Both the position numbers and the translations under genes were made by a program. The notes beneath the pieces were generated by a model. The model did not search any database, was not told the origin of the DNA, and saw only the letters and a program-made list of their open reading frames with translations. This document shows positions 5,607-54,540 of a stretch of DNA of 64,000 bases, piece by piece. Position 1 is the stretch's first letter; each line of letters begins with the position of its first letter. Source of the stretch: a bacterium (GTDB lineage: Bacteria; Electryoneota; Electryoneia; Electryoneales; Electryoneaceae); the NCBI GenBank assembly GCA_963669175.1, contig OY769902.1, positions 1,743,515-1,807,514 of the forward strand, written 5' to 3'.

Positions 5607-5771
5607 GGTGGACCTCCTGTAAACTGTTTCAAGCCAATGGTTCGCACCACGGGCAGAGCTTTTCGATGACACTATCCCTCATCTAATAAACTACGAACGA
5701 ACCATGTGGGAATTGTGCCCAGTATCACTCTTTTTTTAAAAAGAGAAACCTGAATGGAGTCTCAAAGAGTA

Positions 5772-6908
5772 TCAATTTTTTCTACGACCTGATCCTTTCT
5801 TTTTAACTCTATTTAAAAACTCTGATATGCCATGATCTTGATAATATTTCCATGCTTTTCGATATCCTTTGCCATAAGCCGGATCATCATTTTCTTCAAG
5901 CTGATCCAAATGATAGTCTGCGAGTTTACTGTGAATGGATTCCAGCATAATTCGCATGGCTACATTTGCCGAGCCTTCCCGCCAGTCGGCATGGCCGCCG
6001 TCCGCATCATTCTCGTGTTGCCAGACATGAAAAAGCTCATGTGCGGCAACACCGGATAACATATCACGCGGGAGACCATAAAGAAAATAGATTGTTGTAT
6101 CTTCACGAATAACTCTTCCATTCATTGTCTCCGAGTGAACCGAGTGCAGCCCATTGGCATCACCTTCGCCGCCATGCAATTCATGTAATTGATTTTTATC
6201 AACAAGGACGATGCTGATGTCATCCAGGCTGGTGTTGAATCGGATACCGTTGGCTTCCAGCACCGCAGCGGCTTCACGGACAATCTGAGCAGCCTTCCCG
6301 GCGTCGGTGACTTCCGTTTCACGGCAGACTTCACACTGAATACGTCCATCCGCCAATTTCCAGGCGTGTCCCGGCAGAGCAAAACGTCCGCAAGAATCAC
6401 ATAATTCAACCTGGTCCTTATACTCGGCGCTGATCGTGGTTCCCCACCAGTCCGTTACATAGGGACCGAGAATAGGCTGGCCGGTGATAGCGCAAATCGG
6501 GGCAAGGTTCTCTACATAACACGATTCATGATACACCTTGCCATCAATGGTGAAGTATTTGTCCGATACAGGTGCGCCACACCATTCACAACGCGGCGAG
6601 AACTCATGGTGATAACAATCGGGGTGATAAAATTTGCCCTTGTGTTCGATATAGCTGCCATCGATACGAAACCCGCAGGCGGCGCATTTGAAGCATTCCG
6701 GATGAAAGTATTTGCCATTGGCTTCGATGTACTGGCTGGTGATTACTTTACCGCATCCGGCACAGCGTACCCTCTGTGCCAGGGCATGGGTCGGTAATAC
6801 AATCAAGCCAACTGCAGCCGGTGTCACCACACGAACAAATCGCCTGCGATCCCACTTTTCGGCATCGGCTCGACATGTTCTCTCTGTGCTGTTCTTTTTG
6901 CAAGCCAT
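5772..6908 (-). CDS. LIM-type double zinc-finger protein fused to an HExxH zinc metallopeptidase (DA1-like architecture), Tat-like signal
   Basis: N-terminus has an RRRF twin-arginine-like motif followed by a hydrophobic stretch and ALA-Q. Then C-x2-C-x16-H-x2-C-x2-C-x2-C-x19-C-x2-H, which fits the LIM consensus, followed by a second C-x2-C-x16-H-x2-C unit and CDSC...CEVC. C-terminal region carries HELFH (HExxH). Confidence 0.6.
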   Translation of the reverse strand: MACKKNSTERTCRADAEKWDRRRFVRVVTPAAVGLIVLPTHALAQRVRCAGCGKVITSQYIEANGKYFHPECFKCAACGFRIDGSYIEHKGKFYHPDCYHHEFSPRCEWCGAPVSDKYFTIDGKVYHESCYVENLAPICAITGQPILGPYVTDWWGTTISAEYKDQVELCDSCGRFALPGHAWKLADGRIQCEVCRETEVTDAGKAAQIVREAAAVLEANGIRFNTSLDDISIVLVDKNQLHELHGGEGDANGLHSVHSETMNGRVIREDTTIYFLYGLPRDMLSGVAAHELFHVWQHENDADGGHADWREGSANVAMRIMLESIHSKLADYHLDQLEENDDPAYGKGYRKAWKYYQDHGISEFLNRVKKKGSGRRKN

Positions 6909-7855: not shown

Positions 7856-9808
7856 ATGCGTAACGATAGATATACATATTTGTTGATTATTTCCCTGCTG
7901 GCTTTCTCCTTTTTCCCACTGGAGAAATCAATAGCACAATCCCGCAATGTTGTGGTTCCTCGATCCCAGCAGACAGAAGAAATCCGTCAGGAAGCGACCA
8001 GGAAAAGCCGTACCGCTACCAGGCTTGAGCAAAGAGGGCAAATCGACGAGGCGTTGGCAATCTGGGATTTACTGGCGGACCAATTTCCCGACAACAGCTC
8101 CTATTTTGAAGGGCAGGTGCGTTGCCTGACCACGTTGGCCAGGTATAATGAAGCTGCAAGGTTACTGGAAGAGCGGATACCGCTGGAGATAGACCAGCGC
8201 CAGAAAGCGGAATACCTGGTGCGGCTTGGCGGGGTGTACCAGAAACTGAACAAACCGACCCAGGCCGAGGTCAATTACCGTCAGGCCGAGGAGACCGCTC
8301 GAGGGGTGGAAGGCGCTTATCATGCGGTGGCCATGGAGTTTCTGCGTCAACGTCAAACAGAGCGGGCGATTAGCATTTTAAAGTCTTCGCGAGTTGATCT
8401 CGAGAACCCCTATTTGCACGCGTTTACCATCGCATCCCTGAAACAGAATACCATGGACTGGGCCGGAGCGACCGAAGAATACCTGTTGGCGCTCCAGGAA
8501 AGCGGCACACGCAGGCAATCCGTCCTGCGGTCTTTTGCCACTTTCCCCAACGATCCGAATACGGATAAAGCTGTTGAGGCCAGCATTCGTGCGGAGCTGG
8601 ACCGTACCGAGAAGGAGCAGCCCTGGCCCGGGTATCGAGACGCTCTGTGGCAAATCCTGATCGATCAACGGATCAAGAGCGGCAATTTTGAAGGCGCTGT
8701 GGATCTGCTGGAAACAATCCAGGAGGAAGAGGGCGAAGAGGGCTGGCTGCTTCAGTTCGCCCAGACAGCCGTAGACGAAGGCGCGCACGATGCTGCCAGA
8801 CGTGCGCTGGAGATAGCAGCGCAACGCACGCAAAGTGAAAATCGACGCGCTGAAGTTGATCTTGCCCTGGCGACCCTGGTGCAAGCAGAAGGCGATTTCT
8901 CGCAGGCGGACAGTTTGTATGGCACTGTTATCGGAAGGCTGGAGAAGAATCCTACCCTGGCTTATTCAGCCCTGATCCGGCGTGGACAGATGCGATTGAC
9001 GTATGTCGATAATCCATTGGGGGCGTTGGAAGATTTCGAACACCTTGCCGAATTGCAGGGTAAGCAGGTGGAGCAACAGGTTGAGTACCTGCTGGCTGCC
9101 ACACTGCTTCGTCTGCACCGGTATGATGAAGCGCGTCCACATCTGCAACAGACGATTTCGCCCCAACTTCCTGACGAGCCTCAGCGCGGAAGAAGACGTC
9201 CAAGGCAACCGGTTGCCTACGATGCCGGACTGGGCGCTCATGCCGCGTATCTGAATGCACGGTTATCATGGTGGGAGAACAACCCGGAACGAACAACCGC
9301 TATCCTCGATAGCATGCTGAAGCATCCCACCGGCGCAGAAGTGGAAAACGAAGCGTTTGACCTGCTTTTCCTGCTGAGCAGTAAAGCGGATTCAAGTATT
9401 CTCCGTCGATTTGCACAAACAGACCAGGCATTGTTTGAACAACGAGTAGAAGATGCGGAGAACATGCTCGCGTCCATTGCTACGGACACCGCATCATCCT
9501 TGTCCGCAAACGCTTCCTGGTGGCTGGTGGAAATCGCTGTGCAGACCGGGGCGGAGGATGTCCCGGAAGTTGTTGACGCTTATGTCACGCAGTATCCGGG
9601 CACCCCGCGTGCAGAAGAGGCATGGCTGAACCTGGGAATCTGGTATGAGGATCAGGGCTTGACTGATGAAGCGAAAACCTGCTATGAAACGATACTTATC
9701 GACTATTATGACGGCCTGCTGACCTCGGAGGCACGATTGCGCCTGGATCAACTGGCGGGAATGGAACTGCCGCCCCTGCAACCACCTTCGCCTTTTGAGA
9801 CGCCGTAG
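7856..9808 (+). CDS. tetratricopeptide-repeat (TPR) protein with N-terminal signal/anchor
   Basis: ATG at 7856 gives MRNDRYTYLLIISLLAFSFFPLEKSIA (signal-like). The rest is alpha-helical with repeated A/L/Y/E-rich 34-residue periodicity typical of TPR arrays. Track start 7799 is GTG. Confidence 0.6.
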   Translation: MRNDRYTYLLIISLLAFSFFPLEKSIAQSRNVVVPRSQQTEEIRQEATRKSRTATRLEQRGQIDEALAIWDLLADQFPDNSSYFEGQVRCLTTLARYNEAARLLEERIPLEIDQRQKAEYLVRLGGVYQKLNKPTQAEVNYRQAEETARGVEGAYHAVAMEFLRQRQTERAISILKSSRVDLENPYLHAFTIASLKQNTMDWAGATEEYLLALQESGTRRQSVLRSFATFPNDPNTDKAVEASIRAELDRTEKEQPWPGYRDALWQILIDQRIKSGNFEGAVDLLETIQEEEGEEGWLLQFAQTAVDEGAHDAARRALEIAAQRTQSENRRAEVDLALATLVQAEGDFSQADSLYGTVIGRLEKNPTLAYSALIRRGQMRLTYVDNPLGALEDFEHLAELQGKQVEQQVEYLLAATLLRLHRYDEARPHLQQTISPQLPDEPQRGRRRPRQPVAYDAGLGAHAAYLNARLSWWENNPERTTAILDSMLKHPTGAEVENEAFDLLFLLSSKADSSILRRFAQTDQALFEQRVEDAENMLASIATDTASSLSANASWWLVEIAVQTGAEDVPEVVDAYVTQYPGTPRAEEAWLNLGIWYEDQGLTDEAKTCYETILIDYYDGLLTSEARLRLDQLAGMELPPLQPPSPFETP

Positions 9809-9811
9809 AGA

Positions 9812-9860
9812 AGTGAAAAACGTAAAGAAAGTGAAAAAGGTGAAAAAAGTGAGAAGCGTA
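9812..9860. repeat. phased 9-bp GTGAAAAAN tract (repeat family D)
   Basis: gaagtgaaaaacgtaaagaaagtgaaaaaggtgaaaaaagtgagaag directly after the TPR stop codon. The same periodic motif recurs at 54475..54540. Confidence 0.4.
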
Positions 9861-16384: not shown

Positions 16385-16564
16385 AGACCTGACGAAACTG
16401 GCGCTGCATTAGACCTGACGAATCTGGCGCTGCATTAGACCTGATGAAACTGGCGCTGAATTAGACCTGATGAAACTGGTGCTGCATTAGACCTGACGAA
16501 ACTGGCATGGAGTAGACCTGACGAAACTGGCGCTGCATTAGACCTGACGAAACTGGCATGGAGT
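16385..16564. repeat. tandem array, 7 copies of a 25/26-bp unit (agacctgacgaaactggcgctgcatt)
   Basis: Seven head-to-tail units with a few substitutions; two units end in ggcatggagt. No spacers, so not CRISPR. Lies between the BI-1 gene and a small OMP gene. Confidence 0.85.
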
Positions 16565-25826: not shown

Positions 25827-27194
25827 GTGAAAGGGATGTTGAAGGCCCGCAAGATTCATGTCGCTGATGATTTTCTTGTTGCCGGCCGTTCGATAACCTG
25901 GCCACTTCTTTTTGCCACCATGGGGGCTACTGTCATTGGCGGCGGTTACTCCATCGGTGCCGTTGGTAAGTCCTATGAATGGGGTCTGCTCATGGTACTG
26001 ATCTCCATGGGCGGCTACATTCATTTTATTTTTTCCGGGCTTGTGGTGGCCCCGAAATTCCGTGAAGCCAAACTGTATACAGTTGCCGGTTATTTCGGCC
26101 ACCGGTATGGTGAGGGGCCACGTCTTGCCGCAATGGTTCTGTCCCTGCTGTTCTCCGTCTTTATCGTTGCAGCGCAAATGGCGGCAATCGGTTCCGTGCT
26201 GTCTACCCTGATGCCGGCAACTATTGATGCGCAAAACACCATTCGAACAGGCATCCTTGTCGGTGGTATCCTCGTGGTTCTCTACAGTACCGCCGGTGGA
26301 TTGCTGGCGGTGATCTATACGGATGTCTACCAGTTTGTCGTGTTGTTGCTTGGTTTCCTGATCACACTTGCCTTTATCATGCCGGACATGATCGCCACCT
26401 GGCCCACTGTCACCAATACCCTGCCGGACCGCTTTTTCACTATCACCGGGGATAAAGGATGGGCGTTCATGCTCACGACATTCCTGGCTTTTCTTGTGGG
26501 GGAGACCTTCGCACCGGGATATGCCACACGTTACTGTATCGGCAAGGATGTCCGTCACACAAAGATCGGTATCGCCGGAGTTGGCGCTTTTCTGACCCTG
26601 ATTTTTCCCGTGATCATCTTTTTCATCGCTCTGTATGCCCGGATGAAATTTCCGGATATTGATCCCCAGCAGGCCTTGCCGCAAGTAATCCGTTACCTGC
26701 ACAATCCATTCATATCCGGGATCATTATTGCCGCGTTGCTGAGTGCGGTGATGTCATCGGCCGATTCGGCGCTGAATTCATCAACCGCCATTTTCGTGAA
26801 GGATCTGTTCGAGGAAACCTTTCACTGGACCGGGAAAGACCAGGCGCAGATGCTGAGAATCGCTCGTATCTGCACAGCAGTTCTTGGGGTTGTTGCCATG
26901 CTGATTGCCATCCTCTGGTCTGATATTATCGAACTGTTGCTGTTCACCTACCAAGTCTGGGCGCCGGCCATTATTCTGCCGGTGGTCATCGGCGCCACAA
27001 CCAGCTTCCGCAGCAAAGCCCTGAACCGTGCGATCCTGTGGACCATGATTTTGTCTACGGTGATCACCTTCGGCTATCGCTATACGGAGTATGCTGCGAC
27101 CTTCGATCCAGCGGTGTTCGGGGTGTTCCTGAGTGTGGGAGTGTATGCGGTTATCAGGAGTGGGGAGAAACTTATAAAACGAATTAGTAATTAG
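25827..27194 (+). CDS. sodium:solute symporter (SSS) family transporter
   Basis: 12-13 hydrophobic helices with SSS-type motifs (GGLLAVIYTDVYQ). The in-frame upstream stretch LIEWILIGGYITFII looks like part of helix 1 but has no canonical start, so the true start is uncertain. Confidence 0.7.
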   Translation: MKGMLKARKIHVADDFLVAGRSITWPLLFATMGATVIGGGYSIGAVGKSYEWGLLMVLISMGGYIHFIFSGLVVAPKFREAKLYTVAGYFGHRYGEGPRLAAMVLSLLFSVFIVAAQMAAIGSVLSTLMPATIDAQNTIRTGILVGGILVVLYSTAGGLLAVIYTDVYQFVVLLLGFLITLAFIMPDMIATWPTVTNTLPDRFFTITGDKGWAFMLTTFLAFLVGETFAPGYATRYCIGKDVRHTKIGIAGVGAFLTLIFPVIIFFIALYARMKFPDIDPQQALPQVIRYLHNPFISGIIIAALLSAVMSSADSALNSSTAIFVKDLFEETFHWTGKDQAQMLRIARICTAVLGVVAMLIAILWSDIIELLLFTYQVWAPAIILPVVIGATTSFRSKALNRAILWTMILSTVITFGYRYTEYAATFDPAVFGVFLSVGVYAVIRSGEKLIKRISN

Positions 27195-27290
27195 GAATTA
27201 GTAATGAGGAATTACAGGAGAAGAAGCCAAACTTGGCTCAAGCTGGCTCTTATCTAAGCGATGGTACAATTCCTAATTCCTAATTGCAAA
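27185..27290. terminator. convergent-gene terminator region with AT-rich inverted repeat
   Basis: aattaggaattag ... ctaattcctaatt inverted repeat flanking a GC hairpin, between the SSS transporter (plus strand) and dapB (minus strand) stops. Confidence 0.35.
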
Positions 27291-27293
27291 TTG

Positions 27294-27995
27294 CTAATTA
27301 AAGATAGCGTTTGCCATTGAAAACTCCCCCTCCGTTTTCCCCGACAGGAACCTAACTGCCGGGGCAACTCCCTGGGCGAAGGCCTGACGTGAGCGGGCAC
27401 GGTGGATCACTTCGATCTCCTCGCCTTCAGACGCGAACACCACGTGATGCTCGCCGACCACTTCGCCCAGACGCAGGCTGACACACTGCACCGGACCGCC
27501 GACCTCCTGCAGCACTTCCATCAACCGTTTCGCCGTGCCGGAGGGAGCGTCCAGCTTGTGCTTGTGATGGGTTTCCTGTATGCCGACGTCGTACTTGTCA
27601 CCCAACACGGTCCGCATTTTCGGCATCAGGTCAAACAGGAGATTGATCCCGATGGAAAGGTTGGGAGCAACGATATGAGCGTTTTTCAGATCACGAAGAC
27701 GAGCGGCCTGATCCGGTGAGAACCCGGTAGCGCCGATCAGGATGGGGATGCCAAGTTCTTCAGCTCGCAGAGCATGGGTATACGCTACTGATCCAAGCGA
27801 AACATCCACCCAGACATCCGCACTCAAATCAGAATTGCCAAGGTCTGCTTCAAGCGTCAGGTCGCCTACATGCTGCCCTGCTACGGCCTGCACATCCACC
27901 GCATGCGCGATCCGGATATCGGCTTCCTTCGTCAACGCTTCCACAACTTCACGACCCATACGGCCGTTGGCGCCGAACAACGTCACGGTGATCAT
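27294..27995 (-). CDS. dapB: 4-hydroxy-tetrahydrodipicolinate reductase
   Basis: N-terminal Rossmann MITVTLFGANGRMG and the diagnostic E-x-HH-x2-K-x-D-x-PSGTA motif (ETHHKHKLDAPSGTA). Confidence 0.88.
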   Translation of the reverse strand: MITVTLFGANGRMGREVVEALTKEADIRIAHAVDVQAVAGQHVGDLTLEADLGNSDLSADVWVDVSLGSVAYTHALRAEELGIPILIGATGFSPDQAARLRDLKNAHIVAPNLSIGINLLFDLMPKMRTVLGDKYDVGIQETHHKHKLDAPSGTAKRLMEVLQEVGGPVQCVSLRLGEVVGEHHVVFASEGEEIEVIHRARSRQAFAQGVAPAVRFLSGKTEGEFSMANAIFN

Positions 27996-28030
27996 CTCGC
28001 TCTCCCTTTTTAGATCCACTCACAGGCTTA

Positions 28031-28065
28031 ACAGGATAATAGGATGAAAGGATTTCAAGGATGAT
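28031..28065. promoter_or_regulatory. (AGGAT)n direct-repeat module upstream of dapB
   Basis: acaggataataggatgaaaggatttcaaggat. The same module occurs upstream of dapA (29714..29746) and glnA (31408..31447). Confidence 0.35.
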
Positions 28066-28118
28066 TCTTATGGTTAAAAGTTGAAAAGTTATAATGTTAT
28101 AAAGTTATTCGAGCTAAC

Positions 28119-28158
28119 GAAAAACAGGGACTGACCCATCGTAGTCTGTCCCGTTTTT
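28119..28158 (-). terminator. bidirectional intrinsic terminator after the AT-rich orphan gene
   Basis: aaaaacagggactgac...gtctgtcccgttttt: GC stem flanked by an A-tract and a T-tract. Confidence 0.45.
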
Positions 28159-28253
28159 CGCAACTAAATCTGATCCAGTCTCTAAACCAATGGATGTTTG
28201 GCCCGACTGCTCGCTGTCGGGTTTCAGCTATCAGATAGTCAGCGTGAGATACA

Positions 28254-28661
28254 CTAATCCTTGTACCGATAGAAAGTATGGGCATAATCAGAAGACATGG
28301 AAGACTCAATAATTTCCTTTTCATTTGGTTTTAAAGGATCGGGATTTTCAAAATTCATTGAAACAAGAAAATCCTTTGATAAGACTAAACCATCAACAGG
28401 CATATTTACATCATCCTTAATACGTCGCGAAAGCCATAGCGCAATTTGTTGTGCTAAGGATGTTTCTTCGCCAATATTTCTTCCACCAGTCTTGTAAGGG
28501 CAAGCAAAAAAGGCCTCTTTGTATTGAATCTTAAACAATATCGCTATCTGATATGCCGATAACATTATATATTTTCCCAAGTGAGGTTGAAGTGGATTTT
28601 TATGTTGTTTTAATACCTCGATGATTTTTTCGCCAACCTGGTAATCTTCCCACCAACTCAT
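28254..28661 (-). CDS. hypothetical protein encoded in an AT-rich islet
   Basis: 135 aa from ATG 28661, with a strong RBS (AAGGAGGG) 5 nt upstream. Local GC is clearly lower than the flanking dapB and dapA. No recognisable domain. Confidence 0.5.
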   Translation of the reverse strand: MSWWEDYQVGEKIIEVLKQHKNPLQPHLGKYIMLSAYQIAILFKIQYKEAFFACPYKTGGRNIGEETSLAQQIALWLSRRIKDDVNMPVDGLVLSKDFLVSMNFENPDPLKPNEKEIIESSMSSDYAHTFYRYKD

Positions 28662-28788
28662 ACTTCCCTCCTTGTTTCGTTTATCCAAAATTGTTGTTTA
28701 GTAATATTATTACAATACACTAAAAATGCAATATTTAACGAGGCTTCATTTAAGTAATTATAATGTCTGAAAGAGATTAATTCGCTGG

Positions 28789-29682
28789 TCAGCTTGCAAC
28801 TAACGATAGTTCTCGCAATACAGCCAAAATTACTTCTTCCGATTCGGGACGGATTGGCGCCAGTGGCGGACGTACAGTCCCAGCGGGCAGGCCCATTTGA
28901 TTCAAAGCAAACTTGGCAGGGCCGGGGCTGGTTTCGATGAACAGCGCTGAGACCAGGCTGGCAAAACTACGATGTAACTTGTACGCTTCCACATCGTTAC
29001 CGTCGTTTTCCAGCTCCCACTGTTTCACGACCAGTTCTGGGACGATGTTGGACAGCACACTGACCGTGCCCGAGCCACCGATTTGCCAGATAGGCAGGTT
29101 CTGACCGTCTTCGCCGCTGAATACTGTAAGCTCATTACCAACACGCCAGATCAGATCCCATATCTGGGTCAGGTCGCCGGATGCTTCCTTTATGGCAGCT
29201 ATCGACGGAATCTCCATCAGTCGTTCTGCCGTCGCGGGTTTCAAGTTCACACCAGTGCGTCCGGGCACGTTATATACCATGATCGGAATCTCCGGTACCG
29301 CTTCGGCGATCATGGAAAAGTGGCGAACCAGTCCGTCCGGGGTCGGTTTGTTGTAATAGGGAGTGATGACCAGCGCGCCATCCACGCCCAGTTCATGAGC
29401 GCGTCTCGTGCGTTCGATACTCTTGACCGTATTGTTGGTGCCGGTGCCGACGACGATAGTCGCCTTGCCCTTCGCTTCACGCACGGCGATGCGGATCACC
29501 GTTTCCCACTCGTTCATGGTCATCGCAGGCGCTTCACCAGTGGTGCCACAGGGGACCAGTCCGTGAATACCCGCTTCCACCTGGCGCTTCACCAAGGCCG
29601 CGTACGCAGCTTCATCCAATGAACCATCTTCCCTGAACGGGGTCACTAACGCTGTAAAAACTCCCTGCCAGTCTACTCGCAT
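28789..29682 (-). CDS. dapA: 4-hydroxy-tetrahydrodipicolinate synthase
   Basis: GLVPCGTTGE motif near the N-terminus, TIM-barrel length, Schiff-base lysine region. Confidence 0.88.
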   Translation of the reverse strand: MRVDWQGVFTALVTPFREDGSLDEAAYAALVKRQVEAGIHGLVPCGTTGEAPAMTMNEWETVIRIAVREAKGKATIVVGTGTNNTVKSIERTRRAHELGVDGALVITPYYNKPTPDGLVRHFSMIAEAVPEIPIMVYNVPGRTGVNLKPATAERLMEIPSIAAIKEASGDLTQIWDLIWRVGNELTVFSGEDGQNLPIWQIGGSGTVSVLSNIVPELVVKQWELENDGNDVEAYKLHRSFASLVSALFIETSPGPAKFALNQMGLPAGTVRPPLAPIRPESEEVILAVLRELSLVAS

Positions 29683-29713
29683 GCTTCCACTCCCAATATC
29701 TTACCGCAGGACT

Positions 29714-29890
29714 CACAGGATAATAGGATGAAAGGATGCCAAGGATAACTGCACAAATATACTTAAAAGATAAAGAAAAGCAATGATACGATTAGAATAA
29801 TAAATGCTATTAATCAATAATATAATTTGTCACCCATAAAATGTGTTTTTATCCTTGAAATCCTTCTATCCTATCATCCTGTTAAGCCTG
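29714..29890. promoter_or_regulatory. dapA upstream module: (AGGAT)n array, AT-rich spacer, inverted (ATCCT)n array
   Basis: cacaggataataggatgaaaggatgccaaggat (29714..29746), about 100 bp of AT-rich DNA, then atccttgaaatccttctatcctatcatcctgt (29851..29882). Same architecture as the glnA upstream module. Confidence 0.4.
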
Positions 29891-29945
29891 TTTTGTATCC
29901 TGAATATCTGTTGAAATCCTGTTTATCCTGTAAATGCTTGCTCGT

Positions 29946-31361
29946 TTAAATGTCGTAATACAGCTCAAACTCCCACGGATGCGGCCGTTGACGAAGCGCG
30001 TTCACTTCACGGTCGCGTTTGTACCAGATCCAGGTATCTACAACATCCTCCGTGAACACATTCCCCTTGTACAGGAAGTCCTGATCGGCTTCAAGGGCGT
30101 CAAGCGCATCGGCCAGTGTCGGCGGGGTTTCCGGCACATTGTCCAGCTCTTCCGGTTCCAGGTCATACATGTTCTTGTCCAGCGGATCGCCGGGATGGAT
30201 GCGGTTCTGGATGCCGTCAAGCCCGGCCATCAGCATGGCGCTGAAGGCAAGGTAGGGATTGCAGGAGCTGTCCGGGACACGGAACTCCACACGTTTCGCC
30301 TTCGGACTGTTGGAATACATGGGAATCCGGATTGCCGCGCTACGGTTACGTTGGCTGTAGGTCAGGCGTGTCGGCGCTTCGAAGCCGGGAATCAGGCGCT
30401 TGTAACTGTTCGTGGTTGGGTTGGTGAAGGCGCACAACGCCGGGGCATGCTTCAGGATACCGCCAATGAAATGCAGCGCCATCTCCGACATGCCGGCATA
30501 ATGATCACCGGCGAACAGAGGAGTTTCCCCGTTCCACAGGCTCATGTGAACGTGCATTCCGCTGCCGTTATCGCCATAGATCGGTTTCGGCATGAAGGTC
30601 GCGGTTTTGTTATGACGGTGCGCGACATTCTTGACCACATATTTGAAAAGCTGCAGGTTGTCCGCCATACGGAGCAGCGGGCTGAACTGCATGTCAATCT
30701 CGCCCTGTCCACCGGTCGCGACTTCATGGTGATGCGCTTCAACCGTGATATTCAGCGATTCAAGAATCATCGCCATTTCGCTACGCAGATCCTGGGTGGC
30801 ATCCTGCGGCGGTACCGGGAAATAGCCCTCTTTGTAACGTGGTTTGTACCCAAGGTTCGGGTTCTCTTCCCGCCCGGAATTCCAATGTCCTTCAACAGAA
30901 TCGATGTGGAAATAGCCTTCATGAGCGTTCTGGTCATAACGAATATCGTCAAAGATGAAAAACTCCGCTTCCGGGCCGACAAACACCGTGTCCGCCTGTC
31001 CCAGGGAACGCATGTACTCCTCGGCTTTGCGTGCGAGGGTACGTGGGCACTTGCTGTACGGCAGCATGGTTGTCGGTTCAATGATATCGCAGAACAGGAT
31101 CAGGGTTGGAGTGGAGGCGAAGGGATCGAGTACGGCTGTGGAAGCGTCAGGACGCACCAGCATGTCGGACTCGTTGATCTGCCGCCAGCCACGGATGCTG
31201 CTGCCGTCGAAACCGTAGCCCGACTCAAAATCCTCATGCTTCAATCGACCGACCGGGATGGTGAAATGCTGCCATAATCCGGGGAAATCCATGAAACGAA
31301 GATCGACCATGGTGATGCCACGGCTCTTGATCAATTCGAACAGATCATGAATCAGATCCAT
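29946..31361 (-). CDS. glnA: glutamine synthetase, type I
   Basis: GS signature regions ([34 protein letters not shown]). About 470 aa from ATG 31361 (MDLIHDLF...), preceded by AGGAGAAGA. Confidence 0.9.
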
Positions 31362-31407
31362 CTGTCTTCTCCTTCTATGTTCGCTTTTTCTTTTCCGACC
31401 TTTGGGA

Positions 31408-31578
31408 CTCACAGGATATTAGGATGATAGGATGATAAGGATAAGGCGAAAAGTTCTATTGAAAAGAAAAGATTTTCATTTGATCTTTCAAAAGTAAATA
31501 ATAAATAATTGATTACAGGGTTCTTGCTAATATTTTGTATCCTTGATATCCTTCTATCCTATCATCCTGTGCGACATG
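31408..31578. promoter_or_regulatory. glnA upstream module: (AGGAT)n array, AT-rich spacer, inverted (ATCCT)n array
   Basis: cacaggatattaggatgataggatgataaggat (31408..31447), AT-rich spacer, then tatccttgatatccttctatcctatcatcctgt (31538..31572). Lies between glnB and glnA. Confidence 0.4.
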
Positions 31579-31580
31579 AA

Positions 31581-31937
<357 letters not shown>

Positions 31938-32996
31938 TTATACTGCGAAACGGATATGCATGATATCGCCATCCTGCACGATATAGGTCTTGCCTTCCAG
32001 ACGTAACAGTCCCTTGTCCTTACACGCGGACATGGAGCCCAATTCAAGCAACGTGGTCGATGGAACCACCTCTGCACGGATGAAGCCACGTTGCAGATCC
32101 GAATGAATCTCGCCCGCCGCTTCCACTGCGGGAAGACCCGAGGTGATCGGCCAGGAACGGCACTCATCATCGCCAACGGTGAAGAATCGGATCAGGCCCA
32201 GCAACTCAAATCCCAATCGGATAACTCGCAGCGACGCAGGTTCGTCAACCCCGAGATCCGCCAGGAAATCGCCACGGTCTTCCGGTTCAAGCTGCGCGAT
32301 TTCCGCTTCGAGTTCCGCGTTCAGGACTTCCAGTCTGCGTTTGATCCCGTTCAAAGTATCGGCCAACGCATCCCGGAGCACTGCGCCATCCTGATGCTCG
32401 CCATGATTGATTACGATCAATATTGGCTTCTGGGACAGGAAAGCATAGGTGCGAAGAACCTTTTCCTCTTCCGGGGCAAATTCCAGCTCGCGTAACGGTT
32501 TTTCTTCGTTCAGAGTATCGAGGCAACGCTGGATGGCCTTCTCTTCGATGGCGTCAACCTTCAGACCACGCTGACGAGACTGCTTGATCTTCTCGGCACG
32601 GTTCTCCGCGGTTTGCAGATCAGAAAGAAGCAGCTCGGCTTCAATATCCTCCACCTGCCTGCGGATATGATTCAGCATTTCGTCTTTGTCGTCACCGAGA
32701 TGGAATGTGCCGATTACCGCCGCCAATACGGTAGCGCCCTGCAGGTGATTAACCATGGAACGCTTGAACCCGGTACGTTCTTCCGTATGCGCCAGTCCCG
32801 CGATATCCAGGTAATTCATCTTGGCAGCGACTTTTTTCGAGCGTGGCCAGAGAGCGTGAAGTTGATCCAGGGTCGCATCTGTAACTTCCGCGACGCCGGG
32901 ATGCGCCTGTGAACCGATATCCGGCTGATCGCCTGTCAACGCCGTAAATAGGGTGGACTTCCCTCCGCCCTGCCACCCGATGAGTGCAATGTGCAT
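31938..32996 (-). CDS. YchF/OLA1-like P-loop ATPase with C-terminal TGS domain (divergent G1 motif)
   Basis: Walker A GWQGGGKST, G3 DIAGL, and a C-terminal motif EGKTYIVQDGDIMHIRF that closely resembles the YchF TGS domain. Confidence 0.65.
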   Translation of the reverse strand: MHIALIGWQGGGKSTLFTALTGDQPDIGSQAHPGVAEVTDATLDQLHALWPRSKKVAAKMNYLDIAGLAHTEERTGFKRSMVNHLQGATVLAAVIGTFHLGDDKDEMLNHIRRQVEDIEAELLLSDLQTAENRAEKIKQSRQRGLKVDAIEEKAIQRCLDTLNEEKPLRELEFAPEEEKVLRTYAFLSQKPILIVINHGEHQDGAVLRDALADTLNGIKRRLEVLNAELEAEIAQLEPEDRGDFLADLGVDEPASLRVIRLGFELLGLIRFFTVGDDECRSWPITSGLPAVEAAGEIHSDLQRGFIRAEVVPSTTLLELGSMSACKDKGLLRLEGKTYIVQDGDIMHIRFAV

Positions 32997-33804
32997 GGTT
33001 GTACTGTTTCCGTTAGCCTGATCAATGTTTAGCGAAAATAAATAATGTAGAGGAGCCTATGATACAAGGCAAGAGGTCAAAAATATTACGTCCCCCGGAT
33101 GAAAAAAGGATCAATCATTCATCCGGTTGAAAATACGCGTTTTGACATGTCGTCCCGTACGGCAAGTTCCTGTCGTCGCATGGGGGGTTAGGGAAATCTA
33201 ATCTCCCTTACTGCAATATGTAACTTAAATATGGGTGCCTCACAATCTTGTGTGTGTATACTATATAGGGCACAAACGCCAAGTGAGTATTCAAGTGACC
33301 CACCTTCGGTGGACATGGATGAAACCTGATCAAACTTTCTGTATTCTTGTTGACTATGGTTGTTTGCCCCGCACGAAACGGCGAGGCACCCCAAAATGAA
33401 TGTTCAAATCATGAGTGAGGTTTGTGGCAGGTATCCTGATCATCATGCTGCTGACAGGGACTTCCTGTTTACAAGATGCTCCTCAAATCCAGTAGTCGTG
33501 AAGGTTTTAGCACGGGGTAACTTGGCTCTCCTGTAATTAGCCTATTCCTCGCGAGACAAACTCTTGATAAGGCAAAAATTGAATATTGTCTTCGTAATTG
33601 TCTATTATTGAATATAGTATCGAAATTCATAATCGGGGATGTAAGATCTCAGCAAACATCTGGTTCTGCCTACTCCAACCTTCCTGAATTGCTCGCCTAT
33701 TGTTTGCATTGTAGATCTACAAGTCTTTAAACTTATAAATACATATGTTAGGAACGGGAAGAGCAACTTTGTCACATTTTTCACAAAGCAGTACAGGAGG
33801 GAGC

Positions 33805-35253
33805 ATGAGATCAGGATGCCTTGTTTTGTTTATCCTTGTCTTTGCATTCGTGATGATCGGGTGTGAAGGGGAGGTTGGGCCCCAGGGACCGGCAGGTCCG
33901 GAAGGCCCGGAAGGAGCGCAAGGCCCGGCGGGTGAAGATGGGCAGGATGGGCAGGGTGTGTATGAGTTTACCTACCTAGGCAATGGTGGCGAAGACTGTA
34001 TGCACTGCCACATGACAACGGTTTCCAACTGGAGCGGCACCAAGCATTACGAAGCTTACGCGGACCTGGATTCGGAAAGTAAGGAAAATCCGTATTGCGT
34101 GAAGTGCCACGTTACCGGTTGGGACAGCGAAGTCGCGTATGGTGATACCGTCATCAATGTATACGGTCCCGATACGACTGGTTTTGATGATTACTGGATG
34201 GTAGAGACCGATGAGGCGGAAGAGCGTCGCATGGCCTTGGCTGGTGTGCAGTGTGAGGCTTGTCACGGTGGCATGGGACCAGACTTCAACGCACATCGTC
34301 CCAATATCAGTTTTGCCACTCATAACGATGAGGATGGTGAATCCTTATCCCTTTGTTCGCCTTGTCACAGCACCCAGTTGAATGAATGGGTGGAATCCGG
34401 GCATGCGGCTGTGCAGGCTTCGTTGACGCCGGAACAGTTTACAGATGAATTCGGACGTTCATCATGCAACCCCTGCCATACCTCGGAAGGTTTCCTTGCC
34501 GCCAATGACCCGGCGTATGCGACCTATGAGTTTGATGAACTGCAATCCTACATCGGTTGTGTGACCTGTCATGATCCGCACTCCAACACCTACGAAGCCC
34601 AGGTGCGCACGGTAGGTGCGGTTGAGACGGTGTACCATCCCGGTTATGAAGATGGCGACCCGGAAGTGGCGACCATGGACGGGTACGGTGTCGGCCAGGT
34701 TTGTGCGCAGTGCCACCACGGACGGCGTGATGCGGACAACGTTGACAGCCAGATTGCAGACGGCTACGCTCACTTCGGTCCGCACGGTTCCCCGCAGATG
34801 GACACCTACATCGGTACCGGTTGTTACGAGATCGAGGACTTCGTCTATGAAGGCAGCCATGCACATCAGTCGATCAGCAACGGCTGCGTAAGCTGTCACA
34901 TGGAACGTGAAGCGATTATCCATGGCGAGCTCCAGGATCACTCGTTCCATTCTTTCACACCGGATGCGGATAACTGCCTGCCCTGCCACAGCATCGAAGA
35001 TTTCGATTACAACGGTGTCCAGACCGAGGTCATGGACAAACTGGATCAATTGGCCCAGGCGCTCGGCTACACAGATCGTGATGATTTCGAAGCCAACTTC
35101 GACAGCCAGGCGGATGGAGTTACCGCTGATGAACGTATGATTGCCTACGCAATGGTGTTCATTCTGAACGATGGCAGCTATGGTGTGCACAATCCTACGT
35201 ACGTGATGGATCTGCTGGACAACGCGATTTCCTATTCGGCAACACTGCCGTAA
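33805..35253 (+). CDS. lipoprotein with collagen-like GXY repeat fused to a nine-heme c-type cytochrome
   Basis: RBS AGGAGGG before ATG 33805. Lipobox VMIGC. Ten consecutive GXY triplets (GEVGPQGPAGPEGPEGAQGPAGEDGQDGQG). Nine CxxCH motifs (CMHCH, CVKCH, CEACH, CSPCH, CNPCH, CVTCH, CAQCH, CVSCH, CLPCH). Confidence 0.75.
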   Translation: MRSGCLVLFILVFAFVMIGCEGEVGPQGPAGPEGPEGAQGPAGEDGQDGQGVYEFTYLGNGGEDCMHCHMTTVSNWSGTKHYEAYADLDSESKENPYCVKCHVTGWDSEVAYGDTVINVYGPDTTGFDDYWMVETDEAEERRMALAGVQCEACHGGMGPDFNAHRPNISFATHNDEDGESLSLCSPCHSTQLNEWVESGHAAVQASLTPEQFTDEFGRSSCNPCHTSEGFLAANDPAYATYEFDELQSYIGCVTCHDPHSNTYEAQVRTVGAVETVYHPGYEDGDPEVATMDGYGVGQVCAQCHHGRRDADNVDSQIADGYAHFGPHGSPQMDTYIGTGCYEIEDFVYEGSHAHQSISNGCVSCHMEREAIIHGELQDHSFHSFTPDADNCLPCHSIEDFDYNGVQTEVMDKLDQLAQALGYTDRDDFEANFDSQADGVTADERMIAYAMVFILNDGSYGVHNPTYVMDLLDNAISYSATLP

Positions 35254-35280
35254 TAGATTGTTCTTATTTTTTGACAAACA

Positions 35281-35318
35281 ACGGGACAGGCCGGTGCTGG
35301 TCTGTCCCGTTGTTCTCC
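35281..35318 (+). terminator. candidate terminator after the cytochrome gene
   Basis: Stem acgggacag / ctgtcccgt with a 12-nt loop, followed by tgttctcc. The U-tract is weak. Confidence 0.35.
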
Positions 35319-35413
35319 CTGATTCATACTGACTCACAGGATGTACAGATGGAGATTTATAGCGATTCCCATTATTATTCCGTCATGTGCAAGATCAGTG
35401 AAAGGTCAACCAT

Positions 35414-35663
35414 ATGGTTGGAATAAAGGATAAGGATATGGAAAAAGGGGACAGTTTCCTTTCCCTGGGGCAAAGCCTTCCCGCTGTGAGCATGGACCGG
35501 GAAAGGTGGCTGTACCCTTTTTCTTGAGAGCAGGCAGGACGTACACGGAAAAGGGTACAGTTTCCTTTTCCACAAGTTCGGCGAGAGTTTTTCATATGCG
35601 CGCGAGGAAAAGGATCCCGTCCCCTTTTCCCGGCAATCCTTATTATGTCGGAATAAAATCGAG
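35414..35663. repeat. repeat family B, copy 2
   Basis: Aligned with 14246..14480 and 44698..44962. Ends in ggaataaaatcgagaa as copy 3 does. Confidence 0.6.
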
Positions 35664-35772
35664 AACAGCAATACAAGATGTACAGGATGTTGAAGGATGA
35701 TCAGGATGGGAAATGATTGCTTGAGATAACTTTAGAATATAGTAGCGTGTCAACTTTTTACCTTTTGCTGTT

Positions 35773-36045
35773 ATCCCCGGCTTCGACCGGGGATCTCGCG
35801 GGATATCGTGTAAAGCCCGTTTGGCACTACTTGTGCGTCGTGGTGTACGTCTAACAGTCGGGATACTGGTAGCGCAACCTCGAGATCCCCGTTCAAGCCG
35901 GGGATGACATGGGGATGGGGGATGGGGATGGGGGATGGGGATGACATGGGGATGGGGATGACATGGGGATGGGGTGGGGATGACATAGGGACTGGGGGAT
36001 GGGGATGACATGGGGATGGGGGATGGGGATGACATGGATATTGGG
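35773..36045. repeat. hairpin repeats (family C) plus G-rich heptamer tandem tract
   Basis: Hairpins atccccggcttcgaccggggat and gagatccccgttcaagccggggatgacat, followed by about 140 bp of GGGGATG/GGGGATGACAT units. The overlapping 173-aa minus-strand ORF is a low-complexity artefact. Confidence 0.7.
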
Positions 36046-36186
36046 AGGACGGATGGCCCGATGCACAGGTGACAATACTTCCATACCAAACGGAGCAGGC
36101 AAACTCTCACAAGAACAAGCCTTACCAGTTGTTCTTCGAGTGCGTCGGGATGAATGAAAAACAATACCTTATAACTTCAAATCAAA

Positions 36187-40336: not shown

Positions 40337-40342
40337 AATTGT

Positions 40343-40414
40343 CAGATAGCAGAATGAATTCAGATTGCAGAATGAATTCAGATTGCAGAATGAATTCAGA
40401 TAGCAGAATAAATA
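40343..40414. repeat. tandem array, 4 copies of an 18-bp unit (cagattgcagaatgaatt)
   Basis: Direct head-to-tail repeats immediately right of the MITE-like element. Confidence 0.8.
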
Positions 40415-43185: not shown

Positions 43186-44664
43186 TTGATATACTCGGTT
43201 TTGTTGAATTACTCAGGTCTTGCAAAAAGTAAAAGGCATGGTTCATTTTACAACCAAGAAGACGCCAAATCTCTTCAGTTGTAAAGGAGATAACCATGCC
43301 TGTCATAACATCGTCATTTTTTGAGTTACTTGCAAGTTTTCGTCCGGTGTTTCGGAAGCCTGTTTATGAGAATTTTGTACTGTTGGCTATCGGCGCTGTA
43401 TTGAATTTCGGTCGTCAGACAGTCTGTCAGTTATTACGTGTATTTCCCGGACCGGTAGCGAAGAGTTGGTCTTGTTATCACCATTTTCTTTCGTCTGCCA
43501 ACTGGTCCGCCCTGAAACTGGCAAAGATTCTCTGCTCTTTGATACTTGATCAGATTGCCGAACGTGATCCGATCCTTCTGATCGTGGATGATACCCTGAT
43601 CCGTCGTTGGGGAAAGCATGTTTACCAGATATCCGTTCACCGCGATCCCGTCCGTTCGGGCAAAGCAGGGACAAAAGTCGTTTATGCTCGCGGTCTTCAA
43701 TGGATGGTGATTTCGATTGGTTTGCGCACCCGTTATCGTTCGCAGATCTGGGCGCTTCCTGTATTCGTGTTTCCGGAGATCGCCAAAAAGCGTGTTCCGG
43801 AATCGAAGTACCGCAGTCCTGTACACCTGATCATTCTCGGGGCGCGTCTGCTGCTTCGATGGTTCCCGGACCGCCGTTTCCTTATCCTTGCCGACGGTAC
43901 GTTGAACTCCCACGAACTTCACCGTTTCGTGGCGAAAGAGAACCGTCTTGCTATCATCGGGCATTCGCGTATGGATACGGTGCTGCATGATCCGCCGCCT
44001 CCACCGAACGGGAAACGTGGACGTCCGCGCAAAGTCGGTGACCGTTTGCCCGCACCGGGACAAGAGGCGAAAAAGCCGGATGCTGCCTGGGAAAAAGCGT
44101 CTTGCCTCTGGTATGGGAACAAGACAAAAGACCTGTTGCTGCTTTCCGGTGTTGGCTGCTGGTACCGTTCCGGGGAAGATGTTGTCCTGATACGCTGGGT
44201 GGTGGCGCGTGATCCCGACGGCAAAAACAAGGACATTGTCTTATCTACATCCAAAACAGACTTAACCCCGGCCCAGGTTGTCAGCTCATATGTACGACGA
44301 TGGGCGTTGGAAACCACGTTTGAAGAGTCACGGAAACATCTGCGTATCGAAACGACAGAAAACTGGTCAAAAAAATCGATTCAAAGAACAGTGCCCCTGC
44401 TGTTTGGCTTGTTCAGTCTGATGGTTGTTTGGTATAGTCAGCAGCCAGAGCAGAAAGCTGTTGCGCAAACAGAGTGGTACACAAAACTGGAACCCAGTTT
44501 CTCAGACGTGCATCAGGCATTGCGTGCTGAATTGTGGATGCAGGCGATTTTTCCCGAATGCAAGCAGCCACGCGGATTCTTAAAAAAGAAAAGCAATATC
44601 CTTAAATTCCTTATTCACAAAGCCGCTTGATCCGCTAAAATGAGCAAAACCGAGTGATATAGTT
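43186..44664 (+). mobile_element. insertion sequence (IS4/IS701-superfamily), apparently intact
   Basis: Single transposase ORF flanked by imperfect terminal inverted repeats tgatatactcggttttg (43188..43204) and caaaaccgagtgatata (44646..44662), which share an 11-bp perfect core. Confidence 0.6.
43296..44630 (+). CDS. DDE transposase (IS4/IS701 superfamily)
   Basis: Candidate catalytic residues in LIVDDT and ILADG, and the Y-x2-R-x3-E-x6-K signature in YVRRWALETTFEESRKHL. 444 aa. Confidence 0.75.
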   Translation: MPVITSSFFELLASFRPVFRKPVYENFVLLAIGAVLNFGRQTVCQLLRVFPGPVAKSWSCYHHFLSSANWSALKLAKILCSLILDQIAERDPILLIVDDTLIRRWGKHVYQISVHRDPVRSGKAGTKVVYARGLQWMVISIGLRTRYRSQIWALPVFVFPEIAKKRVPESKYRSPVHLIILGARLLLRWFPDRRFLILADGTLNSHELHRFVAKENRLAIIGHSRMDTVLHDPPPPPNGKRGRPRKVGDRLPAPGQEAKKPDAAWEKASCLWYGNKTKDLLLLSGVGCWYRSGEDVVLIRWVVARDPDGKNKDIVLSTSKTDLTPAQVVSSYVRRWALETTFEESRKHLRIETTENWSKKSIQRTVPLLFGLFSLMVVWYSQQPEQKAVAQTEWYTKLEPSFSDVHQALRAELWMQAIFPECKQPRGFLKKKSNILKFLIHKAA

Positions 44665-44697: not shown

Positions 44698-44962
44698 GAG
44701 ATCCACTGTATGGTTAATGGTTAGAGGAAAGGAAATGGAAAAAGGGGACTGCCTCCTTTCCCCGGGGTAAAGCCTTCCCGCTGTGAAAATGGACCGGGAA
44801 AGGTGGCTGTACCTTTTTTCTTGAGAACAGGCTGGAATTATACGGAAAAGGGGATAGCTTCCTTTCCCACGAGTTCAGCTAGCGTTTTTTGTGTGAGTGC
44901 GAGGAAAAGGATTCCGTCTCCTTTTCCCGACAATCTCATCACAACGGAATAAAATCGAGAAT
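44698..44962. repeat. repeat family B, copy 3
   Basis: Directly right of the IS. Aligned with copies at 14246 and 35414. Confidence 0.6.
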
Positions 44963-54468: not shown

Positions 54469-54474
54469 CGGGAA

Positions 54475-54540
54475 GTGAAAAAAGTAGACAGTGAATAAAG
54501 TGAAAAAAGTAAAGAAGGTAAAAAATGTAAAGAAAGTCAT
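54475..54540. repeat. phased 9-bp GTRAAAAAN tract (repeat family D)
   Basis: gtgaaaaaagtagacagtgaataaagtgaaaaaagtaaagaaggtaaaaaatgtaaagaaagt directly after the cyclase stop. Confidence 0.4.

Follow-up and report, generated by a model that had tools for sequence, protein, structure and literature searches.

Paired arrays of phased AGGAT cores between glnB, glnA, dapA and dapB: a dispersed intergenic repeat of probable foldback design

The 64-kb window analyzed here (the whole stretch of DNA under study, positions 1,743,515 to 1,807,514 of contig OY769902.1) carries on its minus strand a run of five genes, ychF, glnB, glnA, dapA and dapB, whose spacers contain arrays of the pentamer AGGAT. We refer to one such array as an arm, to each AGGAT as a core, and to two inverted arms together with the AT-rich interior between them as a unit. 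The genes of the cluster, the units and the scattered relics lie at the following positions of the window.

27294-27995, minus strand: dapB (NCBIfam), start codon at 27995
28022-28062, plus strand: dapB unit, gene-proximal arm, with pseudo-core ACAGGCTTA followed by AGGAT cores at 28033, 28041, 28049 and 28058, about 35 nt upstream of the dapB start
28063-28119, minus strand: dapB unit, remnant of the AT-rich interior, a short tandem repeat (GTTATAAA)n (Tandem Repeats Finder [TRF], 28073-28108)
28120-28159, minus strand: terminator-like hairpin with A and T runs on its sides (-26 kcal/mol, z = -5.1), downstream of ORF144
28254-28688, minus strand: ORF144, an AT-rich open reading frame (ORF) of 144 aa (36% GC) between dapA and dapB
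28789-29682, minus strand: dapA (NCBIfam), start codon at 29682
29709-29748, plus strand: dapA unit, gene-proximal arm, with flank GGACTC and then four AGGAT cores, 32 nt upstream of the dapA start
29749-29850, no strand: dapA unit, interior, 22% GC, unalignable with other interiors
29851-29931, minus strand: dapA unit, gene-distal arm, with four perfect cores at 29851-29882, ending 14 nt after the glnA stop
29946-31364, minus strand: glnA, type I glutamine synthetase (NCBIfam), start codon at 31364
31405-31444, plus strand: glnA unit, gene-proximal arm, with flank GGACTC and then four AGGAT cores, 46 nt upstream of the glnA start
31445-31536, no strand: glnA unit, interior, 22% GC
31537-31572, minus strand: glnA unit, gene-distal arm, four cores, ending 10 nt after the glnB stop
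31581-31919, minus strand: glnB, P-II protein (NCBIfam)
31938-32996, minus strand: ychF (gene call)
35331-35348, plus strand: solo relic of an arm end, GACTCACAGGAT and then degenerate sequence
35668-35762, plus strand: sixth, degenerate arm (35668-35712; ACAAGATGT ACAGGATGTTGA AGGATGATC AGGATGG) followed by a 40-nt module, ATAACTTTAGAATATAGTAGCGTGTCAACTTTTTACC

The window contains five intact arms of 32 nt with the layout ACAGGAT-nnT-AGGAT-nnn-AGGAT-nnnA-AGGAT, each with four cores at a spacing of 8-8-9 nt. Three of them lie on the plus strand (28031, 29715 and 31411) and two on the minus strand (29851-29882 and 31539-31570). The three-core pattern AGGATnnnAGGATnnnAGGAT has 5 matches in the 64 kb (28033+, 29717+, 31413+, 29860- and 31548-), compared with 0.00 expected from 100 dinucleotide shuffles, and a two-core pattern was observed 10 times, compared with 0.10 expected from shuffles. 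The full 32-nt pattern ACAGGATnnTAGGATnnnAGGATnnnAAGGAT identifies the same five sites with 0 mismatches, and a tolerance of 3 mismatches adds none in the window. A first-pass annotation had described arrays of 8-bp period upstream of dapB, dapA and glnA, with inverted partners at dapA and glnA across about 100 bp of AT-rich DNA and a half copy near 35332. We find all of the described sequences in place. The period is confirmed by TRF, which reports period 8 at 29717 and 31420, although the arms hold four cores rather than three and the last step measures 9 nt. The inner spacers of the two inverted pairs are 104 and 96 nt long with a GC content of 0.22, and the half copy corresponds to GACTCACAGGAT, which occurs three times in the window (29710, 31406 and 35331).

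The plus-strand arms are located 32-46 nt 5' of the start codons of dapB, dapA and glnA, with an ordinary Shine-Dalgarno sequence in between, and the minus-strand arms begin 10-15 nt past the stop codons of glnB and glnA. The distal arm of the dapA unit continues outward up to 29931 through about five degenerate cores (AGCCTGT, ATCCTG, ATCTGT and two ATCCTGT), for a total of about nine. The arm at 29851-29891 has its best inverted match in the dapB arm (41 nt, 93% complementary). The dapB arm itself is unpaired: where a partner would lie there is an AT-rich stretch of 57 nt, followed by the terminator-like hairpin and then ORF144. This ORF, which matches nothing in Pfam or NCBIfam, stands where the dapB unit would have its distal half and probably represents an accessory insertion. 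The 40-nt module after the degenerate arm, ATAACTTTAGAATATAGTAGCGTGTCAACTTTTTACC, is similar to the interior of the dapB unit. Separately, we noted that the hairpin at 28120-28159 is related (73% identical) to one at 35276-35315; both are bidirectional and terminator-like, of the type AAAAAC-GGGACAG...CTGTCCC-GTTTTT.

An exact-pattern scan of sequence collections, with one genome taken per species, returned at least 94 loci. Among the genomes recovered is a close relative, the metagenome-assembled genome (MAG) CAZYOC01 ("uncultured bacterium SRP141376_co4_309"), whose contig L020 is syntenic with the window (nucleotide identity 83% for glnA, 76% for glnB/ychF, 73% for dapA and 72% for dapB). 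The CAZYOC01 DapA protein is 79% identical to that of the window, the next matches reach at most 66%, and the closest named matches come from Calditrichota, "Candidatus Electryonea clarkiae" and KSB1. CAZYOC01 also has a fused ccoNO gene and Por_Secre_tail proteins, which together with the DapA matches lead to a placement in the Fibrobacteres-Chlorobi-Bacteroidetes (FCB) group (Calditrichota/"Electryonea"-like). This genome contains at least 37 distinct arms in at least 17 loci, with the consensus aaaacccttaACAGGATrnTAGGATAGAAGGATatcAAGGATaa. An arm lies within 300 nt of a contig end in 9 of the 17 loci, as expected because repeats break assemblies.

The genes beside the arms in CAZYOC01 are diverse. 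They include a urea-transporter fusion, an SDR, NrfD with a 4Fe-4S partner, TrpRS, a flavin reductase, nucleoside and dicarboxylate transporters, nuoJ, a DUF58 protein, PPDK and an APH-family kinase, and arms are present at each junction of ccoI-ccoS-ccoNO (cbb3 oxidase). A motif search with enrichment by functional class had been set beforehand as a test of shared function; across these neighbors, which span respiration, tRNA charging, transport and central carbon metabolism, we observed no pathway bias. What the sites do share is their position relative to genes. In nearly every unit an arm lies within 40 nt of a stop codon, the distal arm begins 9-40 nt past the stop, and none of the loci examined has a unit between divergent genes. 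Solo arms after stop codons and units between convergent genes also exist (L027, L034, L057 and L069), as do 50-nt tandem arrays of arms (L075) and tandem whole units. The upstream ORF ends within the arm in two loci, and direct reading of the consensus arm in the AGGAT sense gives stop codons in all three frames. Elsewhere, viral contigs gave only 3 matches, and BLAST of a whole unit against plasmids and phages returned only AT-rich chance matches.

Aligning eight units revealed that the invariant columns are almost exclusively the arm cores (ACAGGAT, TAGGAT, AGGAT, AAGGAT and their complements). The arms measure 32-41 nt and are 78-93% complementary, and whole units span 152-300 bp. The interiors, 88-236 nt long, cannot be aligned across units; they are mosaics of short tandem repeats, namely (AAGTGAAAA)n, (AATTAGR)n, (CTCCAAT)n and (AAGGATAA)n, whose copy numbers differ even between duplicated units (L051) and which also stand alone elsewhere in the window. 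For example, (AAGTGAAAA)n arrays at 9804-9860 and 54473-54537 begin at or just past the stop codons of plus-strand genes, in convergent spacers, and the same repeat is a regular building block of unit interiors in CAZYOC01 (e.g., L051 6290-6350). Although the search pattern did not cover the fourth core, 34 of the 37 distinct arms have kept it intact, and adjacent linker positions are conserved in just 49-68%. When the glnA-unit arms of the window are set against their orthologs in L020, 0 of 48 core positions and 7 of 16 linker positions differ (Fisher p = 2e-5), a value that is conditional because L020 was retrieved by matching the first three cores; with the unascertained fourth core alone the contrast gives p = 0.01. 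Linkers are no more alike within units than between them (4.2/8 versus 4.5/8 identical, permutation p = 0.79, n = 9), and no compensatory change was seen between the paired arms of 9 units. Beyond ACAGGAT an inverted symmetry extends outward for about 10 nt (AAAACCYYTN / NARGGGTTTT in CAZYOC01, GGACTC or AGGCTTA in the window), which leaves the true ends of the unit uncertain. The arms themselves are direct AGGAT arrays without self-complementarity, not imperfect palindromes with a GTAG head. Given the fixed length of four cores, the defined flanks and the inverted pairs of constant polarity, the AGGAT arrays are a defined dispersed element and not products of simple slippage.

We compared the window with orthologous clusters. 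In L020, the glnB-glnA spacer contains a full unit with conserved arms, in the same orientation as in the window, around an interior of 236 nt (96 nt in the window) that cannot be aligned. The dapA-dapB spacer of L020 contains a decayed unit, and there is no unit upstream of dapA, where a DUF3800 gene and a terminator occupy the place. Three more distant relatives (L095, L216 and L217) keep the order (ECF-S)-ychF-glnB-glnA-dapA-dapB and have no AGGAT arrays anywhere in these loci. Spacers of the array-free relatives are 20-164 nt long, and longer where other genes intervene: in L095, 41 nt for glnB-glnA and 70 nt for dapA-dapB, with two other genes between glnA and dapA; in L216, 63, 37 (glnB-glnA), 20 (glnA-dapA) and 41 nt (dapA-dapB); and in L217, 46, 164 (glnB-glnA) and 124 nt (glnA-dapA). 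Because gene order is kept where the arrays are absent, the units appear as clade-specific insertions into old operon spacers. The gene orders thus indicate that the adjacency of glnB, glnA, dapA and dapB is ancestral and that the modules are later insertions rather than ancestral lysine or nitrogen operators, a compact ychF-glnB-glnA-dapA-dapB cluster having been pulled apart by repeat insertion in one clade.

Probable accessory genes are present in the same region. AT-rich genes occupy neighboring spacers of the cluster in the two species, ORF144 (28254-28688) between dapA and dapB in the window and the DUF3800 gene (5354-6136) between glnA and dapA in L020, and repeat-bearing spacers may be landing sites for foreign genes. 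On the other side of the cluster, the ECF-transporter S-component gene lies directly upstream of ychF in L216 and two genes away in L217. In the window it is parted from ychF by about 3.2 kb (33000-36186) that hold a divergent multiheme cytochrome gene (33745-35253) and a repeat-rich, gene-poor stretch.

These comparisons establish a dispersed family without functional bias, inserted in a clade-specific manner and conserved only in its cores. Based on these observations, we favor with moderate confidence the reading that the modules are a clade-specific, non-coding, dispersed intergenic repeat of foldback design, non-autonomous and similar in kind to REPINs, BIMEs and Correia elements. In this design, two inverted arms of about 40 nt, each with four AGGAT cores, would bracket an interior of 90-240 nt that is very AT-rich and evolves fast. 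Since pentamers are conserved at a fixed phase, linkers vary freely and no compensatory change is seen, recognition sites seem to be what is preserved, rather than a hairpin or a whole transposon copy. We infer that the arms are kept as phased recognition-site arrays for a putative sequence-specific DNA-binding protein. The suggestion in the first-pass annotation that phased repeats hint at a bound protein therefore gains from the contrast between cores and linkers. The reading protein would most likely be either a trans-acting enzyme that spreads or maintains the family (compare RAYT for REPINs) or a protein of the host that now makes use of the arms. Any influence on neighboring genes would then be a side effect. 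A unit would split the junctions of a former operon; a sense-strand AGGAT arm directly past an upstream stop codon would close all three reading frames; the AT-rich interior could provide a transcription start, which dapB would need downstream of the strong terminator-like hairpin before its half unit; and if transcription reads through, pairing of the arms could give a stem of about 32 bp with interruptions. For annotation and assembly, the units flag operon breaks, likely internal promoters and repeats that break contigs.

Several points weigh against this reading. Copy number and distribution in the source genome are those seen in the 64-kb window, and a single close relative, CAZYOC01, was found in the collections. 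In JGI metagenomes there were 0 exact four-core arms, and a looser three-core pattern matched mostly unrelated octamer arrays or chance sequence. Inspection revealed no target-site duplication, whether next to ACAGGAT or beyond the AAAACC...GGTTTT symmetry, subject to the uncertainty of the exact ends. Neither an autonomous element nor a transposase with AGGAT-arm ends was found in the window or the related loci, there is no Y1/RAYT-like gene among the scanned ORFs of the window, and the binding protein is hypothetical. Moreover, intact arms beside a wholly diverged interior at an orthologous site look more like host purifying selection than like a selfish element. The first-pass annotation had also raised promoter-carrying miniature inverted-repeat transposable elements, and this idea holds in part: the units are short and non-coding, have inverted repeats at their ends, occur in dispersed copies and vary in presence among relatives. 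A target duplication, a conserved interior, a cognate insertion sequence and a consistent gene-ward promoter were, however, not found.

We also looked for mobility genes that might be associated with the arrays. The window encodes an IS701-family transposase (43296-44630) whose flanks, in the regions searched, have neither AGGAT arrays nor an exact inverted repeat of at least 12 nt. IS701 was dismissed as the cognate insertion sequence on account of its unrelated ends and its absence from the related loci. No protein family is common to 16 AGGAT-array loci, and in L018 inverted arrays about 1 kb apart enclose a housekeeping gene rather than a transposase gene.

We also considered whether the units serve a global DNA-binding system of the host. 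Under this explanation, an oligomeric nucleoid-associated protein, or a global repressor like those on tandem 7-8-bp boxes (MetJ, omega), would bridge the arms and loop out the AT-rich promoter interior, in the manner of GalR at gal OE/OI, and the units would be regulatory or insulator modules taken over by the host rather than selfish DNA. Cores and spacing are conserved as linkers drift, the orthologous glnA-unit arms remain intact despite a change of the interior from 96 to 236 nt, and pairs of arms flank 22%-GC DNA immediately 5' of genes, all of which fit such a system. By inspection, the interior has the same orientation relative to the downstream gene in 7 of 9 units. The situation at dapB is also suggestive: by fold prediction, the hairpin at 28120-28159 separates dapB from upstream transcription, and because this strong terminator-like structure lies just upstream, the dapB promoter can be placed in the 57-nt remnant (28063-28119) or in the arm, so that transcription of dapB would have to begin inside its half unit. 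However, units between convergent genes and solo arms after stop codons (L027, L034, L057 and L069) have no need of a promoter, and no consistently gene-ward sigma-70-like promoter emerged. Promoter and terminator scans gave 7 sigma-70 promoter-like sites versus 8.6 in shuffles, none of them convincing in unit interiors, and a sigma-70 consensus scan of 12 interiors found no gene-ward bias (summed best scores of 90 versus 78.5) and no strong promoter. There are weak pairs of the type TTTACT-N17-TATCCT, directed outward and formed with the innermost core; speculatively, the inner core TTATCCT and (TTTTCACTT)n might make such weak outward -35/-10-like pairs. The decayed dapA-dapB unit and the missing dapA unit in the relative, the 50-nt tandem arrays of arms (L075) and the absence of a candidate regulator among the genes of the window likewise speak against a host system, and we regard this explanation as unlikely.

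A second alternative places the function at the level of RNA. The co-transcribed arms would form an intercistronic stem-loop that protects a 3' end or is cut by RNase III, and would thereby set the mRNA levels of glnB, glnA, dapA and dapB. The location of units inside former operons, with the distal arm 9-40 nt past a stop codon, fits such a role. REP/BIME elements act in this way, and Correia elements provide a described precedent (PMC2649163). The arms do pair in silico, with stems more stable than those of shuffled sequences (z = -3.0 and -5.0). The polarity 5'-AGGAU...AUCCU-3' is the same on either strand; at the DNA level, 5'-(AGGAT)n...(ATCCT)n-3' holds in 8 of 8 genomes with inverted arrays (26 loci among the matches listed, binomial p = 0.008). 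Yet the linkers of paired arms are no more complementary than linkers across units (p = 0.79), which means that the stems consist of 5-bp helices interrupted by 3-nt internal loops, and a hairpin has no need of a conserved pentamer at a fixed phase. Folds limited to the 5' untranslated region (5'-UTR), with the AUCCU array and the Shine-Dalgarno region, were not significant (z = -1.5, +2.0 and -0.9), and an anti-Shine-Dalgarno role of the AUCCU array was dropped on this result. Rfam gave nothing at the gathering threshold in the whole window, and around the modules and the Kapaibacterium elements described below, matches at E<=1 were chance miRNA-like hits only. We consider an RNA-level function improbable.

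Inverted repeats around an AT-rich segment upstream of genes also recall invertible promoters, in which a site-specific recombinase would flip the interior and switch the downstream genes. Inverted repeats of 32-41 nt around a segment of 100-240 bp do have the architecture of an inverton, and inspection shows the opposite interior orientation in 2 of 9 units. The targets, however, are essential housekeeping genes and operon-internal junctions, units also occur between convergent genes, paired arms differ at their linkers, and the window encodes no recombinase. In addition, the glnA unit has one orientation in both species, and the relative's dapA-dapB unit reads identically in two independent assemblies, with no inversion seen. 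We judge this explanation very unlikely.

The remaining alternative, a pathway-specific operator through which one regulator would co-control lysine (dapA, dapB) and nitrogen (glnA) genes, as the first-pass annotation had proposed, can draw on the confinement of all full copies in the 64-kb window to the glnB-glnA-dapA-dapB cluster, on the glnA unit kept in the relative and on the urea transporter among the relative's arm neighbors, but it is scarcely credible given that these genes are merely adjacent in an ancestral cluster, that most arm neighbors in CAZYOC01 are unrelated to nitrogen or lysine, and that, of the orthologous promoters, only that of glnA keeps its unit in L020 (decayed at dapB, absent at dapA) and none does in the three further relatives. 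The first-pass annotation had itself named a lack of functional bias, or absence from orthologous promoters in close relatives, as grounds for refuting the idea; both are seen, the latter at dapA, and a tempting inference of shared regulation is thereby removed. CsrA GGA sites, NarL heptamers, a sigma-54 promoter at glnA, integron attC sites and DnaA boxes (TTATCCACA versus TTATCCTGT) were also considered and set aside as poor fits to the sequence or to the 8-nt phase.

Beyond the close relative, seven other genomes contain inverted AGGAT-octamer arrays, with a phasing of 8-9 nt, and the named ones belong to Bacteroidota and Kapaibacterium. In Kapaibacterium the arrays form an element of about 125 bp with TG...CA ends, TGTCTGAATCAGGATTTACAGGATTTTAGGATTagAGGATT...inverted copy...GATTCAGACA (L070 2250-2900), whose arms consist of TGTCTGAATCAGGATTT followed by three more AGGATT octamers and which is often tandemly clustered. 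Further loci with the TG...CA element are L006, L030, L031, L045, L049, L050, L061, L071 and L082, and its end motif lies beside AGGAT arrays also in loci from Bacteroidota (Chitinophagaceae, Cytophagales), Ignavibacteria, Cloacimonadota and Poribacteria. Small segments enclosed by inverted arrays are found in Flavobacteriales, Arsenicibacter and Sphingobacterium. The MAG CAYWSY01 contains a high-copy AGGAT-array hairpin with arms 25 nt apart (L013 3410-3580 and about 20 other loci), which is nested inside an outer inverted repeat, CTTCCGGTTCAAAGGC...GCCTTTGAACCGGAAG. In a Bacteroidales MAG (L018 6870-7942, L022 3253) we noted a conserved leader, GCTCGARGGGAG...GATTACAGGATTATAGGATTACAGGATGA; in L018 it brackets a 3-dehydroquinate-synthase-like gene, whose ATG start is overlapped on one side by the final AGGAT core. 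No description of AGGAT arrays or of the 125-bp TG...CA element was found in literature looked up by sequence string. It is conceivable, though we think it doubtful from the sequences at hand, that foldback elements across the FCB group form a superfamily with the AGGAT-octamer arm as its common recognition code. If so, there would be an undescribed, widespread protein reading four phased AGGAT sites, either a new mobilization enzyme or a host DNA-bridging factor that punctuates intergenic DNA, and the resemblance across phyla, if homologous, would point to an unrecognized mobilization or DNA-organizing system in this group.

The window contains several other repeats. One pair (27181-27299) has the design of an AGGAT unit with a different repeat unit and lies where dapB and a sodium/solute symporter gene converge, next to the dapB stop: (GAATTAG)n at 27181-27214 is opposed by (AATTCCT)n at 27268-27299, with a GC-richer hairpin in the middle, and the pair folds well on both strands (z = -3.2 and -3.8). 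A repeat family of about 200 bp, with several hairpins of the type GGAAAAAGGGGACAGTTTCCTTTCCC, occurs at 35440-35631, downstream of the multiheme cytochrome gene, and at 44720-44940, just past the gene for the IS701 transposase. At 35900-36037, about 20 units make up a G-rich (GGGGATG / GGGGATGACAT)n array (GC skew +0.84) that could form G-quadruplexes; it lies in 35375-36186, a region without a convincing gene, and is preceded by a structured region (35770-35900) without an Rfam match. Intergenic tandem repeats of longer period are found at 16385-16557 (26 nt x 6.7, 89% matches) and 40342-40413 (18 nt x 4, 94% matches). There are no tRNAs in the window.

The AGGAT units are not assigned to any named family of dispersed intergenic repeats, and several known systems resemble them in part. 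MetJ, with its 8-bp met-boxes, and omega, with its heptads, are oligomerizing repressors on tandem boxes, and GalR OE/OI form a two-operator loop. The likeness lies in phased boxes of 7-8 bp in runs of 2-5 and in either orientation, with the AGGAT arrays placed about 100-130 bp apart around AT-rich DNA. Those repressors, however, serve a defined regulon through conserved orthologous promoters, whereas AGGAT sites are dispersed without functional bias in one clade. Foldback (FB) transposons have inverted repeats made of variable numbers of short sub-repeats around a heterogeneous middle, and they are eukaryotic, kilobase-scale and, in some copies, associated with a transposase. The likeness is one of architecture alone, and we found no evidence of homology between FB transposons and AGGAT units.

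In genomic habit, the closest counterparts are heptamer (LSSR) arrays such as TAACTGA and also the cyanobacterial STRR. TAACTGA arrays are abundant in intergenic regions of Beggiatoaceae, Cyanobacteria and Bacteroidetes (PMC4679880). Shared features are tandem units of 7-9 nt near the start or stop codons of unrelated, even essential, genes, shorter repeat-free spacers in relatives with the same gene order, copy numbers that change in unit steps, and assembly breaks. The window and its relative are themselves rich in such arrays, including (AAGTGAAAA)n, (GAATTAG)n and (GGGGATG)n. The AGGAT arms differ from them in fixing only a 5-nt core per unit of 8-9 nt and in having four cores, defined flanks and an inverted partner of constant polarity.

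The Correia elements (CREE/NEMIS) of Neisseria come closest to the units in size and in their effects on nearby genes; they can create outward promoters, bind IHF in their core, form RNase III substrates when co-transcribed and vary in presence between related genomes (PMC2649163). The two kinds of element are alike in their small size (100-160 bp), their terminal inverted repeats and their position next to genes. The sequences are unrelated, however, and Correia copies share a conserved core and duplicate a TA target, whereas AGGAT units have unalignable interiors, arms built from sub-repeats and no duplication that we could see.

The closest match in both architecture and genomic behavior is offered by the REPINs and BIMEs of Pseudomonas and enterobacteria, inverted REP doublets that are thought to be maintained by a trans-acting protein (PMC3116915, PMC3337134). 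Like these, an AGGAT unit consists of two short inverted repeats with a less conserved spacer, and it is extragenic, lies near gene 3' ends and also occurs within operons; many copies, the apparent lack of target duplication, a species-specific consensus and persistence at orthologous sites are further common features. The differences concern the arm and the spacer. REP units are imperfect palindromes with a conserved GTAG head, whereas AGGAT arms are non-palindromic four-core arrays whose arm-to-arm complementarity is not specially preserved, and an AGGAT unit has a far longer spacer, of extreme AT content and made up of short tandem repeats. This is an uncommon repeat design, in which the arms consist of phased 5-nt cores and constraint falls on the cores alone, and a 4xAGGAT oligonucleotide would offer a handle for the putative reading protein.

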